Notes: generated by a model from the sequence alone, not told the origin. 64,000 nucleotides of DNA from an uncultured Candidatus Saccharibacteria bacterium (GCA_964410185.1 CAYPFM010000001.1:16860-80859); one strand, 5' to 3'; counted from the first letter of the stretch, positions 22,307 to 28,352 are shown. Translations and numbers: made by a program.

Positions 22307-23152
22307 ATGCAAAGCTTGGCGAAAACAAAACTTGGGGGTCGTACTGGCCGATGGTTTTTGGCTTTTACGCTGTTAGTTGCCCTCTTGGCAACGCCGCTGG
22401 CTGTCCATGCTGTCACGCTTATCTCGCAAGGCTATCTGTCCGATGGCGTCCTGCCAGTGGGCGCGATTGTAAGTCTTAAAAAAGACACCGTCGATTTTGT
22501 AGAGAGTACCACCTCTAACACCACCAATAATATTCTTGGGGTAGTTATTAACAACGGGGGCTCACAGGTGTCGGTGGCATCCGAAAAGAGTAATCAAGTC
22601 CAGGTGGCCACGAACGGACTGGAACCGGTGCTGGTTTCGAACATCAATGGCGACGTGGCTGTTGGTGACGCTATTACCGGTTCACCGATTGATGGCGTGG
22701 GCATGAAGGCCACTGGCAACGCCAAAGTAATCGGTATCGCCCAGGATACGCTGCCCAACAATAACAGTAGCAAGCAGACCTACAAGGATAAGTCTGGTCA
22801 ACAGCACGACGTCATCATCGGCACCGTACCAGTACTGGTGAACGTGGCCTACTTCTACAAGCAACCCGATAAAACCCTCTTCCCTTCGGCTGTTCAAAAC
22901 ATTGCGAATGCCCTGGCGGGCAAACCTGTCAGTGCCCTACCGATTATTATTTCCATCGGTATTTTTATCGTTACTTTGATCTTGGTGGTGAGCATTGTGT
23001 ATTCGCTTATCAAGAGCAGTATTATCTCGGTGGGACGCAATCCGATGGCCCAAGCCGCGGTCTACCGTAATGTTATTCAGTTGTCTCTGTTGGTGCTGAT
23101 TATTTTAGCGGCCGCGGTGGCGTCGATTTACCTCGTTTTAAGGCGGTTTTAA
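22307..23152 (+). CDS. exported protein with C-terminal two-helix hairpin resembling an ATP synthase c subunit (loop GRNP) but lacking the carboxylate; first gene of the atp operon
   Basis: Signal peptide ...LLATPLAVHA, an extracytoplasmic domain of about 190 aa, then LPIIISIGIFIVTLILVVSIVYSLIKSSIISVGRNPMAQAAVYRNVIQLSLLVLIILAAAVASIYLVL. Its stop is 3 nt before the b-like gene. The ATG at 22307 was preferred over the GTG at 22292. Confidence 0.7.
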   Translation: MQSLAKTKLGGRTGRWFLAFTLLVALLATPLAVHAVTLISQGYLSDGVLPVGAIVSLKKDTVDFVESTTSNTTNNILGVVINNGGSQVSVASEKSNQVQVATNGLEPVLVSNINGDVAVGDAITGSPIDGVGMKATGNAKVIGIAQDTLPNNNSSKQTYKDKSGQQHDVIIGTVPVLVNVAYFYKQPDKTLFPSAVQNIANALAGKPVSALPIIISIGIFIVTLILVVSIVYSLIKSSIISVGRNPMAQAAVYRNVIQLSLLVLIILAAAVASIYLVLRRF

Positions 23153-23155
23153 ATT

Positions 23156-23770
23156 ATGTGGGTGGCATTCTTACAGATCTTTATCCTCGTCGATGTTTTG
23201 ATTATTGGCCTACTGGCGCCGTACTTATATCGCCACGCCCGTGCCCACTTTAAGCCCGAGGAGCACGACGCCCATGCCGAAAACACCGACGCCGCCCTGC
23301 CCGCCGCCGTTAAAGCCCGGATTCTCAAAGACTCCGAAGTAAAGTTCGAAGCCGTGGTGACACACTCCATCACCGAACTGCAGCATAATCTTCAGCACAC
23401 CAACAACGAGGTCAATACCATGATCAAGAAGCTGTCGGTTAACGTGGTGAACAACGAGTTGGAGCAATATCGTGATGGCCTGGCAAAGCTTCACACCCAA
23501 GCCGAGAAGGATTTGGGCGACTTTAAGCAGAAGATGGAAGGCCACGAAGCCGAGATGAAACAGAAGTTGGCCGAAGAAATGGCCGTCGAGAAACAGCGGC
23601 TGGTGAAGCAGCTCGACACCAAGCTGGCCGATGCCGTCAGTTCTTTCTTGCTTGATACCCTGCAGCATAATGTCGACCTGGGCAGCCAGAGCACCTACCT
23701 CCTGTCGGTACTCGAGGAGCATAAAGCCGAGTTTATCAAGGAGGTCAGCGATGAAGCTCCAGCTGCATGA
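23156..23770 (+). CDS. atpF: ATP synthase subunit b-like stalk protein (204 aa)
   Basis: A single N-terminal TM helix followed by a long charged coiled-coil. Position is immediately upstream of atpH. Confidence 0.55.
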   Translation: MWVAFLQIFILVDVLIIGLLAPYLYRHARAHFKPEEHDAHAENTDAALPAAVKARILKDSEVKFEAVVTHSITELQHNLQHTNNEVNTMIKKLSVNVVNNELEQYRDGLAKLHTQAEKDLGDFKQKMEGHEAEMKQKLAEEMAVEKQRLVKQLDTKLADAVSSFLLDTLQHNVDLGSQSTYLLSVLEEHKAEFIKEVSDEAPAA

Positions 23771-24233
23771 TGACGTGATTTCGCTGCAAGACCTCAAGTC
23801 GGTAACACTGGAGGTTCGTCAGTACGCCAAATGGTATTCGCAGTACGCCATTAAGACGCGGGTTACCAGTGGCAAGTCTGCCCCGCCACCAGCCGTATCG
23901 CCAGCTGCCGCCACCCTCATCAAAGCCTGGGCCGATGACAAGCCCGATCAAAAGGGTCTCGATGAACTGTTAGCCGCCCTCGGTGAGCTAGAAACTAAAT
24001 CGCCCCGCGTCACCATCACCTTGGCCGCACCAGCACCAGGTAGCCTGCAGCGAACCTTGGTAGATTGGTGTCGCAAGAACATTGCCGCCAACATTTTGGT
24101 CACCTTCCGTTTTAACGCGACTATTCTGGGTGGCCTGGTTGTCCAGCATGGCAGCCACATTTACGATTGGTCGTTCCGCCGGCAAATCCTGTCGGCTCGC
24201 GGTAACTTCCCAGAGGTGCTACGTCGTGTTTGA
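23751..24233 (+). CDS. atpH: ATP synthase subunit delta (OSCP)
   Basis: AAGGAGG RBS. The C-terminus ...VTFRFNATILGGLVVQHGSHIYDWSFRRQI matches the delta/OSCP signature (liGG..v..g....D.S). The start was moved to M41 of the ORF-track entry. Confidence 0.75.
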   Translation: MKLQLHDDVISLQDLKSVTLEVRQYAKWYSQYAIKTRVTSGKSAPPPAVSPAAATLIKAWADDKPDQKGLDELLAALGELETKSPRVTITLAAPAPGSLQRTLVDWCRKNIAANILVTFRFNATILGGLVVQHGSHIYDWSFRRQILSARGNFPEVLRRV

Positions 24234-25740: not shown

Positions 25741-26581
25741 TGCCATCCAAAAAGAGACCGAGCAGATTACCACCGTCGAAGATTTAACCGGCGTCTTCGA
25801 AAGCATCGCCAGTACCCAAGTTGCCAAAATTAAGAGCCGGGTGGAGTTATCGAAAGAATTCTTTGACTTGCTGTGGAAGCGCTACAGTTCGATTCGGATT
25901 GATGGCGAGCGCATCGGTACCCGCGAGGCAACCGGAGAAAATGCCGGTCGACAGGCCTTCGTCATCATCTCTGCCCAAGCCGGCCTGAGCGGCGACATCG
26001 ACCAACGTCTGATTGAAACCATGCTGGAAAAATACGACGAAAAGAACACCGACCTAATCGTTTTAGGTAGCCACGGCGCCACCCAGCTCAAACAACGTGG
26101 CATTCCCTACGTCCACTATTTCCAGGTTCCCGAAAGCGACAACTACATCGACGTTAGCCCAGTGATCAAGGCGATTGATTCCTACGCCAACGTCATCATC
26201 TACTACGAAGAATATGTGTCTTTGGGTGTACAAGGGATTAAAACAATCGACCTGTTCTCGAACATAAAAACCGATGGCGAGAATGCCGAAGATGACGTGA
26301 TGACTATTGAAGACACGATTTTTGAACCAAGCCTGGACGAGATCGCTGACTTGATGGAAGAAGCCATGATGACACTGGCGCTCAGCCAAGCCATTCTTGA
26401 ATCGAGCCTAGCCCAAGATGCCAGCCGTTTTAACGCCATGGCCACGGCCAAAAAACGCGCCCAGGAACTAGTGGCCTTAATGCAGCTCGACTTCCACCGC
26501 GCCAAGCGCTCCGAAGCCGACCGACGTCTCCGTGAAGTCATGGTCAGTCTAAAACGCAAGAAACGGACGAGGAAAGCATGA
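25727..26581 (+). CDS. atpG: ATP synthase F1 subunit gamma
   Basis: GAGGAGG RBS. N-terminal [30 protein letters not shown] and C-terminal helix ...[18 protein letters not shown]...R(Q)A. Operon position is between alpha and beta. Confidence 0.8.
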
Positions 26582-28089
26582 GCGAAGCAAAAGCAGCCCC
26601 AGCGACCACGCCGCCGGCCACCAACCCAGCCGCGCAACCAACCGCCCCAGCGGCTCCACCCAAGGACAACTATGACGCTGCCAAAAAAGTTGGTGTCATC
26701 TCCTCACTCCGCGGTTTAATGGTTGAGGTAGAAATTATCGGCACCCGGCCAAAAGAAAAAGAACTTTTGTACGTCGAGGGCCACCCGGAAGTCTTTTTGG
26801 AGGTCAGCTTCTTTAAAGCCAGCGCGGCGATTTGCGTCAACCTCACCAACAACCAAGCCCTCCGTTGCGGCCAGAATGTTAGCGCCAGCGACAAAAAAGT
26901 CAGCGTACCGGTTGGCCCAAGCACCATGGGGCGGGTCTTTAATGCCCTTGGCGAGCCGCTCGACGAAGGCGTCGCCGTCACCGACAACCTCCGTGTTATC
27001 AGTGAGGCTGCCGGCACCAAAAAATACCGCGCTACCCAAAAACTAGAGCTGCTGGAGACCGGCCTCAAGGTCATCGACTTCCTCACCCCGTTCGTGAAGG
27101 GTCGCAAAATCGGCATCGTCGGTGGTGCTGGTGTCGGCAAGACCGTCTTGACCATGGAAATGATTCACAACGTCACCCAGAGCAGTAAGGGTGCCCTGTC
27201 TATTTACTGTGGTGTCGGTGAGCGTATTCGTGAAGGTAACGAATTGTATGAAACCCTCAAGGAAACCGACGTACTCAAAAACACCGTGATGTTCTTTGGA
27301 CAAATGGATGCCACGCCAGCGATTCGCTCCATGGTGGGGCCCGCCGCTGCCACTTCAGCTGAATACTTTAGGGACGAGGAAGGCCGCGACATCCTGTTCT
27401 TTGTGGACAACATCTACCGTCATATTCAGGCTTTGACCGAACTATCGACCAACTTGGGTTTGATTCCTTCGGAAGGTGGTTATTCACCAGTGGTCTTCTC
27501 GGAACTGCGCCGCTTGCAGGACCGTTTAAGTTCCAGCGACAAGGGTTCGATTACCTCCGTCCAGGCCGTCTATATCCCGGCTGACGACTTGAGCGACCCG
27601 GCCGTGCAAGCGATTTCGCAGCAGCTCGATTCAGTCCTCGTGCTCTCCCGTGCGGTCGCCCAGAACGGCATTCGTCCGGCGGTGGACTTGCTGAAAACCA
27701 CCTCTTCCCTACTCACACCACAGATTGTTGGCAAGCGTCACTACGAGCTGGTCGGTAAAGTGCAGGCCATTATGCAAAAGTACGAATCCTTAAAGAACAT
27801 TATCGCCATCGTCGGTGAAAACGAACTGTCGCCAGTTGATCGTGCCGACTTCCAGAACGCCCGTAAACTGATCGAGTTCTTCTCGCAGGACTTTGCCGTC
27901 GCCGAGCACCTAACCGGTAAGCCCGGCCAGTACTTCACGCGCGAGCAAACCCTGGATGGAATTGAAGCAATCCTGAATGCCCCAGCCGATGAGCCAACCC
28001 CAAAGGCCGCTGAAAATAAGCCAGCTGATACCAAAACTGCCGAAGCCAAACCGCCAGAAGCGCCACAACCAACCGCCAAAGCCTCATGA
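26578..28089 (+). CDS. atpD: ATP synthase F1 subunit beta, with Pro/Ala-rich N- and C-terminal extensions
   Basis: Walker [10 protein letters not shown], plus [11 protein letters not shown] and DNIYRHIQA blocks. About 35 aa of N-terminal and about 40 aa of C-terminal low-complexity PAK-rich sequence. Confidence 0.92.
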
Positions 28090-28352
28090 GACACAAAACC
28101 AAAGAAGAAAAACTAACCGTCATCGCCCGTGCCCCCTTTCATGTCTATTACGAGGGGCCGGCTGACGTCGTCTCGGGAGCTAACAGTGTTGGTAAATTCG
28201 ACATCCTGCCCGGACACGCCGACTTTTTTTCGGTCATGGGCCCCTGTGAAGTCGAGATTGAAACCGGTGCCGACAAGCCGATTCAGTTCAAGATTACCGG
28301 TGGCATTGTTGGGGTGCGTGATGATGAGGTTATGCTCTTTGTGAATATGTAG
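28086..28352 (+). CDS. atpC: ATP synthase F1 subunit epsilon, beta-sandwich domain only (88 aa)
   Basis: ...[23 protein letters not shown]...[15 protein letters not shown] matches the epsilon N-terminal domain. No C-terminal helical hairpin is encoded before the stop. Confidence 0.8.

Follow-up and report, generated by a model that had tools for sequence, protein, structure and literature searches.

The question raised by this locus is which membrane partner an F-type ATPase employs when its operon carries no recognizable gene for the a or the c subunit. The locus lies in a 64,000-nucleotide (nt) stretch of DNA from an uncultured Candidatus Saccharibacteria bacterium (GCA_964410185.1 CAYPFM010000001.1:16860-80859), referred to here as the window; judging from the names carried by homologues of its proteins, the host lineage is Saccharimonadales (Saccharibacteria/TM7, placed in the candidate phyla radiation [CPR]). 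Positions 22307 to 28352 on the plus strand hold seven tightly coupled genes in the order X, b-like, delta, alpha, gamma, beta and epsilon, and the junctions from X to epsilon consist of a 3-nt gap followed by overlaps of 20, 8, 14, 4 and 4 nt. The original prediction, made from the sequence alone, had described exactly this order of overlapping or abutting genes behind an X of 281 amino acids (aa), and had placed a divergent 38-aa mini-pilin open reading frame (ORF) and tRNA genes upstream of X. The ORF and hidden Markov model (HMM) calls, together with the junction lengths, bear out the gene order, and the upstream genes were also recovered, the pilin motif scoring above its cut-off and genes for tRNA-Thr and tRNA-Gly being present. 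A promoter and terminator scan around the operon gave nothing above shuffle expectation. The analysis below indicates that this is probably not an ordinary ATP synthase, and it turns on gene X. The seven genes are as follows.

22307-23152, plus strand: X, 281 aa, identical to database protein P0001
23156-23770, plus strand: candidate b-like peripheral-stalk protein, 204 aa, assigned by architecture and operon position
23751-24233, plus strand: delta (OSCP), 160 aa, Pfam OSCP score 24.8 bits (cut-off 22.3)
24226-25740, plus strand: alpha, GTG start, ATP-synt_ab E = 7e-64
25727-26581, plus strand: gamma, PF00231 E = 5e-28
26578-28089, plus strand: beta, ATP-synt_ab E = 2e-64
28086-28352, plus strand: epsilon, 88 aa, PF02823 E = 3e-10

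X stands immediately upstream of the b-like gene, the position that atpE (c) occupies in canonical operons. No Pfam family covers it, and it has more than 1500 homologues in a 90%-clustered database; an exhaustive HMMER search returned 1591 clusters at 50% identity, and the best-scoring 150 of these are, fragments aside, mostly 250 to 300 aa long, and almost every one aligns with X over the full length. The AlphaFold2 (AF2) model built on a 146-sequence alignment reached a predicted local distance difference test (pLDDT) score of 91.6, and an earlier run with 34 close homologues (pLDDT 55) was discarded. X comprises a Sec signal peptide (cleavage at about residue 35, between AHA and V), a beta ectodomain (residues 39 to 183), an amphipathic helix (194 to 204) and a C-terminal 71-residue hairpin, in which the AF2 model gives two 35-residue helices (210 to 244 and 246 to 280) with pLDDT above 90. 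Following an exported domain, the hairpin has an N-out/C-out topology and a cytoplasmic turn formed by G243-R244-N245-P246; both its topology and its length equal those of an F-type c subunit.

The PROSITE signature of ATPase c subunits has two halves, a loop motif [GSTA]-R-[NQ]-P and a membrane Asp or Glu twenty residues after the Arg. We compared X with this signature in 139 family representatives that are mutually at most 50% identical. GRNP is invariant in 139 of 139 and is the sole invariant stretch of X; the cytoplasmic turn, not the ectodomain, is the most conserved portion of the protein. In the second transmembrane (TM) helix none of the 139 carries Asp or Glu anywhere from +15 to +34, including +20, the expected carboxylate site, and neither helix holds a conserved ionizable residue. 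Conserved polar residues (Y, S, Q, R/K) are found near the cytoplasmic membrane boundary.

Profile comparisons relate this hairpin to c subunits. Against seven c-subunit sequences, hhalign aligned the hairpin profile without gaps over 72 to 77 columns, with the loops in register and P values of 0.002 to 0.004. The score of 20.7 compares with 8.9 +/- 2.1 (maximum 18.9) for 200 column shuffles and 8.2 for the reversed profile; an earlier hhalign comparison using close homologues had aligned the loop alone (P = 0.057). When an HMM of 40 diverse X hairpins was searched against 177,635 PDB sequences, the best match was an ATP synthase c subunit, with 60 gapless columns that place 'IGRNPE' on 'IGRNPL'. 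Overall, we regard the link between the X hairpin and c subunits as moderate; X is termed c-like here and is probably c-derived.

No a subunit and no conventional c subunit was detected near the operon. In phmmer searches with typed queries, the E. coli a subunit and five c subunits found nothing better than E = 0.3 in the six translated frames of the 64-kb window, and Pfam assigned its real-looking multi-TM ORFs only to Peptidase_M50, T2SSF (PilC), bPH and glycosyltransferases, with no ATP-synt_A or ATP-synt_C (PF00119/PF00137). The same kind of phmmer search around X, out to 10 kb, was negative for both subunits in 80 related species loci and in two long contigs, L003 and L004. The original prediction had stated that no ORF in the window has the R..(L/I)..N helix of an a subunit or the carboxylate hairpin of a c subunit; literally this holds, yet it is incomplete, since X ends in a c-like hairpin that lacks the carboxylate. 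X had been treated there as unrelated filler, which does not stand: it is a candidate for the membrane sector, with its large family and c-like hairpin. Of the two outcomes envisaged for that sector, 'non-canonical' agrees with X in the c position, its c-length hairpin, the invariant GRNP and the absent carboxylate, whereas 'lost' does not, as X, b-like and delta are strongly conserved.

Canonical enzymes do occur in the phylum. Southlakia has an operon running AtpI-a-c-b-delta-alpha onward, and lake Saccharibacteria lineages have a-c-b-delta-alpha-gamma-beta-epsilon with H+-type c subunits. The original prediction had also offered a and c encoded elsewhere; any such genes in the present genome would more likely form part of a complete operon of their own, like those of other Saccharibacteria, than of a divided one. 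We put the chance that this genome also holds a canonical operon at about even; the X operon has its own non-canonical membrane partner in either case. A lone a/c pair elsewhere without a second F1 would favour a split operon. Indirect hints from relatives are mixed. Only one operon, of the present type, is apparent in a closed WWE3 genome, and soil Saccharibacteria carry F-type ATPase modules of 'varied completeness'. In Ca. Mycosynbacter amalyticus, the abundant alpha and beta subunits of the proteome table (QHN42722 and QHN42726) lie about 545 accessions from the pam genes (QHN43268-74), and this spacing suggests a second F1 locus in that organism.

The catalytic part of the enzyme is well preserved. 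Walker A and B, the catalytic Glu and the Arg finger are intact in alpha and beta, and the catalytic motifs are kept in 63 to 67 species; alpha conserves the Walker A sequence GDSKSGKS and the Arg-finger motif RPAVNAGLSVSR, and beta conserves LFFVDNIYR. From these intact motifs, F1 is predicted to be catalytically competent. The GTG start of alpha at 24226, with GAGG upstream, was read directly from the sequence. Three subunits fall below the NCBIfam equivalog cut-offs: alpha scores 392 bits against 484 for TIGR00962, beta 439 against 463 for TIGR01039 and gamma 80 against 194 for TIGR01146. We also rejected membership in other divergent F1 families. For the Mycoplasma type 2 and type 3 ATPases, beta scores 390 with MSC_0618 (cut-off 570) and 344 with MMOB1670 (cut-off 850), its atpD score of 439 being higher, and alpha scores 291 and 236, both under its atpA score of 392 and, like those of beta, under the cut-offs of the models; for the N-ATPases, the alt_F1F0 models give 338 against 750 for alpha and 412 against 752 for beta, again less than the atpA and atpD scores.

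A central stalk is present, made of gamma and an epsilon that consists of the beta-sandwich only, without the C-terminal helices (84 to 96 aa in relatives with gene calls). The peripheral stalk is a more tentative assignment. The OSCP match of delta spans only its C-terminal part and lies narrowly above the cut-off, and OSCP is also recorded on the delta orthologues of loci L004 and L086. The b-like protein has a single N-terminal TM helix followed by a long helix and matches no Pfam or NCBIfam family; among 81 sequences its C-terminal third is highly conserved, and most species carry an N or D at mid-membrane in the TM helix.

Several peculiarities of these subunits were observed in passing. 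The DELSEED segment of beta is replaced by ENELSP(A/V)D, at about 27800 in the window, in essentially all X-type beta subunits examined. In E. coli, Glu31 of epsilon touches the c loop; the position aligned to it by eye in the present epsilon is Lys. Low-complexity tails rich in Pro, Ala, Lys and Glu occur at the C terminus of alpha (25630-25740) and at both termini of beta (26578-26670 and 27990-28089); relatives in loci L004, L085, L086 and L087 do without them, their beta subunits measuring 431 to 450 aa against 503 aa in the window.

The original prediction had suggested comparing atp operon structure across related genomes. When one genome was scanned for each GTDB species, 294 species had a relative of X, and the best 80 of these loci, which mostly carry Saccharibacteria names, were examined. 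The order X-b-delta-alpha-gamma-beta-epsilon was found in 80 of 80, as far as each contig extends, and X homologues at 29 to 33% identity still head the same operon (L085 and L087). With this recurrence in 80 other species loci, the arrangement is not a matter of chance. In locus L086 (GCA_030150485.1), from a distant lineage, X occurs twice: one paralogue (4256-5053) precedes the b-like gene, the other (10001-10828) follows epsilon, and both have the GRNP hairpin.

Foldseek searches of the PDB with the modelled ectodomain returned capsid decoration proteins of Borrelia phage BB1 and cyanophage Pam3 as well as phi29 gp12 (E = 4e-5 to 1e-3), and searches of BFVD returned pre-neck appendage barrels, DUF2190 and the N termini of tail-fibre and tropism proteins, with E values down to 6e-9 and root mean square deviations of 2.8 to 3.5 A over about 146 residues. 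In the AF2 model, the 145-residue ectodomain thus has the fold of a phage appendage or decoration adaptor, by which phages fasten their fibres and decoration proteins onto assemblies that are symmetric.

The genes around the operon point in the same direction, a conserved association with downstream pilus genes that the original prediction had overlooked. Three neighbouring features are concerned.

22088-22204, minus strand: mini-pilin, 38 aa, N_methyl E = 7e-9 (above cut-off), divergent from X
28581-29642, minus strand: tail-fibre-like membrane-anchored protein, 353 aa, convergent with epsilon
29721-37485, plus strand: candidate Pam-type pilus operon, from ORF calls, synteny and protein sizes, with almost no Pfam matches

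Those of the 80 loci that reach past epsilon all contain, in this order, the convergent tail-fibre-like gene, a 262-aa protein, one to three secreted proteins of about 372 aa (copies being counted within 10 kb of X) and usually a 361-aa protein. The tail-fibre-like protein, found in every locus whose flank extends there, has a Pro/Ala-rich cytoplasmic N terminus (N-in), a single TM helix and, outside the cell, a repetitive domain; it is probably what Troman et al. call the 'tail fibre-like protein' and place next to ATP synthase genes. The candidate Pam-type operon of the window encodes the 262-aa protein, four tandem paralogues of 372 to 373 aa (30652-35343, plus strand; with signal peptides and no Pfam match) and then proteins of 361 and 340 aa that have a C-terminal TM helix or Ig-like domains. 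In size and setting, these proteins are compatible with PamB (38.7 kDa) and with the membrane-anchored chaperones that Troman et al. describe; the paralogues are probably PamB-like pilins and their neighbours chaperones or an anchor. A PDB sequence search of the downstream pilins found no PamA or PamB homologues, the Pam structures probably being absent from the PDB copy that was searched.

Other features of the vicinity are recorded here. The mini-pilin consists of the N-terminal methylation motif of type IV pilins and a hydrophobic helix, nothing more; it was detected at this upstream place in about half of the 84 related loci and could be part of the module, for example as a single-helix membrane partner of the ATPase. 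Right after the pilus-like genes, an ORF of 3492 aa (37625-48103, plus strand) without a Pfam match may be a giant surface adhesin. A type IV pilus (T4P) cluster 4 kb upstream (9872-18062, minus strand) encodes PilB (T2SSE E = 4e-123), PilC (T2SSF E = 9e-45) and four proteins with pilin motifs; its adjacency was not seen in L003 or L004.

Taken together, we propose that these genes specify an F-type ATPase of a distinct, non-canonical kind in which F1 and its stalk are docked on X, and which is ATP-driven, not ion-coupled, and tied to surface appendages; we hold this reading to be somewhat more probable than its negation. F1 would be alpha3beta3 with gamma and the short epsilon, held by a peripheral stalk of delta and the b-like protein. 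Its membrane partner would be X, in place of an a subunit and a c ring, exported by Sec and anchored by its C-terminal hairpin. In c rings, gamma and epsilon dock on this loop; X would oligomerize, and the GRNP loops of the oligomer would dock gamma and epsilon in the same way. As X has no membrane carboxylate and there is no a gene nearby, rotation cannot be coupled to proton or sodium flow in the known manner, and without ion coupling the complex should consume ATP. The machine would then run on ATP hydrolysis, with torque or a conformational change passing through X to the ectodomain. The fibre-adaptor fold of that ectodomain and the adjacent tail-fibre-like and Pam-type genes make work on a cell-surface appendage for host contact the most likely output. 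What the analysis shows is which genes are present, how far they and their order are conserved, their motifs and their predicted folds; the oligomerization of X and all later steps, from docking through rotation to the coupling to a pilus, are inference. A more specific version, which we consider rather unlikely in its full detail, is that a CPR F1 turns a carboxylate-free, c-derived ring bearing phage-type fibre-adaptor domains outside the cell, thereby rotating or remodelling the tail-fibre-like protein or the Pam pilus for attachment or movement.

Several points weigh against this reading. The hhalign probability for the hairpin against c subunits is just 4 to 16%, the c-subunit match in the PDB has E = 0.1, and Pfam ATP-synt_C (PF00137) matched none of ten diverse isolated X hairpins at E <= 10, for which reason X was rejected as a filed member of that family. 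Statistically, common descent of the hairpin and c subunits is not secure; a two-helix hairpin is a simple fold, and its four invariant residues could serve another purpose. Without an a subunit, moreover, the b-like stator has no evident partner to be braced against. In the distant lineage L085 no pilus genes follow the operon, and the Pam coupling may reflect local gene order. Finally, the search for a and c covered the 64-kb window and, in relatives, 10-kb flanks.

This last point bears on one alternative, a split ATP synthase whose F1 and stalk use ordinary a and c subunits encoded elsewhere; X would then be an accessory factor, an assembly factor or a surface protein that has no relation to the enzyme. 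Canonical a and c subunits exist in other Saccharibacteria, reviews credit nearly all Patescibacteria with an F-type ATP synthase, and both PGAP and IMG call the present beta subunits ordinary ATP synthase beta. However, where Saccharibacteria have a and c, these sit within a complete operon with its own F1; X holds the c position and keeps the invariant of the c-type loop; no a or c turned up in the 10-kb flanks of the 80 loci or of L003 and L004; and a closed WWE3 genome has been described with a single operon whose membrane genes are unrecognizable. We judge a split synthase unlikely. A further alternative is a novel ion-coupled Fo: ions would take an unconventional path built from X and the b-like protein, perhaps also from the mini-pilin, and the complex would act as an ion pump or as a synthase driven by the proton motive force (PMF). 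The complete stator of delta and b-like has been kept, the N or D at mid-membrane in the b-like helix and the polar residues of X at the cytoplasmic boundary would be available for such a path, and the bo3 oxidase of some soil Saccharibacteria could supply the PMF. Yet the helices of X hold no conserved ionizable residue across the 139 representatives, nothing corresponds to the a-subunit arginine or the half-channels, and an Fo of this kind would be without known precedent; we hold this possibility to be quite improbable.

Alternatively, X could be a co-transcribed surface protein of the pilus system with no physical link to F1, which would then be an ATPase that is either soluble or tethered by b. 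The fold of the ectodomain and the neighbouring genes do point to surface-fibre biology, and the sequence evidence for c homology is weak; but X stays with b-delta-alpha-gamma-beta-epsilon even where no pilus genes are adjacent (L085), its cytoplasmic turn is more conserved than its ectodomain, and in L086 two copies of X flank the F1 genes. This reading seems to us a shade less probable still than a novel Fo. Small genomes without respiration, and the dispensability of the canonical enzyme in Southlakia, would also be compatible with a decaying remnant of an ATP synthase that lost Fo during genome reduction. Against decay, all seven genes are intact and translationally coupled, the catalytic motifs are invariant across species, and conservation of the family extends down to about 30% identity; we consider it highly improbable.

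A surface machine driven by a converted F1 has a parallel in Mycoplasma. The type 2 (gliding motor of M. mobile) and type 3 (MSC_0618/0619) ATPases are built from F1-derived alpha-, beta-, gamma- and epsilon-like subunits without a or c and with lineage-specific membrane proteins, and in type 2 ATP hydrolysis powers a surface motility machine. The logic we propose for the X operon, an F1 without a and c powering a surface machine, is the same; the differences are that the X operon keeps delta and the b-like stalk and that its partner proteins are unrelated. Compared with canonical F1Fo (atpIBEFHAGDC), the operon has recognizable alpha to epsilon subunits with intact catalytic motifs and an identical gene order from b onward, and X shares with c the atpE position, the hairpin length, the R-[NQ]-P turn and the N-out/C-out topology. 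It differs in lacking a nearby a subunit and the membrane carboxylate, in the signal peptide and 145-residue ectodomain of X, in a b-like protein that HMMs do not recognize, in an epsilon without its helical domain, in the sub-equivalog scores of alpha, beta and gamma, and in the change from DELSEED to ENELSPxD.

Fragments of the arrangement have been noticed before. In the closed genome of WWE3 RAAC2, Kantor et al. 2013 (PMC3812714) reported one ATP synthase operon with unrecognizable membrane genes and a TM protein common to the ATPase operons of OP11 and WWE3 bins, and they took three genes as a, b and c, with 'c' translocating ions. By description, not by sequence, these three genes fit X, b-like and delta, and matched in this way the WWE3 operon is very likely the same arrangement, read in 2013 as a divergent Fo; that account notes no ectodomain, absent carboxylate or link to pili. 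Seymour et al. 2023 (PMC10066038) described in Omnitrophota a 'non-respiratory' ('symbiotic') F-type ATPase that is encoded adjacent to type IVa pilus genes and whose beta subunit clusters with Saccharimonadia. The likeness lies in a second, divergent F-type ATPase beside pilus genes in ultra-small, host-dependent bacteria, the window having its own T4P cluster upstream; the difference is that T4P adjacency is not conserved in other Saccharibacteria loci.

The Pam pili of Ca. Mycosynbacter amalyticus have been solved by Troman et al. (2026 preprint), who found the pam operon of Saccharimonadia and Microgenomatia to be flanked consistently by ATP synthase and tail-fibre-like genes. By synteny and protein sizes, the 80 loci fit this arrangement wherever their flanks reach. 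Troman et al. interpreted the neighbourhood as tied to the production or supply of ATP, with a model that includes no energy-dependent machinery, and left the composition of the ATPase unexamined. In the literature we found no explicit description of an F1 without a and c in Saccharibacteria beyond these passing remarks (Kantor, Seymour, Troman), and in none of the papers found is X dissected, or note taken of its lack of a carboxylate, of the absence of an a subunit or of the ectodomain's likeness to phage proteins. The finding is real and conserved, is probably not an ordinary split operon, and had earlier been noticed in fragments only (Kantor 2013, Seymour 2023, Troman 2026).

It has long been a puzzle that nearly all Patescibacteria keep an 'ATP synthase' although most of them have no respiratory chain, and the present analysis makes this testable for the hundreds of Saccharimonadia species with this operon. 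The gene set of the X operon, at least, cannot be a proton-coupled synthase of known type, and metabolic reconstructions in which it is scored as KEGG F-type ATPase or named F0F1 would then mislead. The Pam pilus gains a candidate energy-consuming partner that its discoverers had not considered. If the more specific version, with a turning c-derived ring, is true, this would be the second independent conversion of F1 to a surface-motility motor after that of Mycoplasma mobile, and the first that keeps the rotor ring. As a natural case of F1 and a stator placed on a rotor-like protein without an ion site, the X operon bears on the evolution of rotary ATPases.

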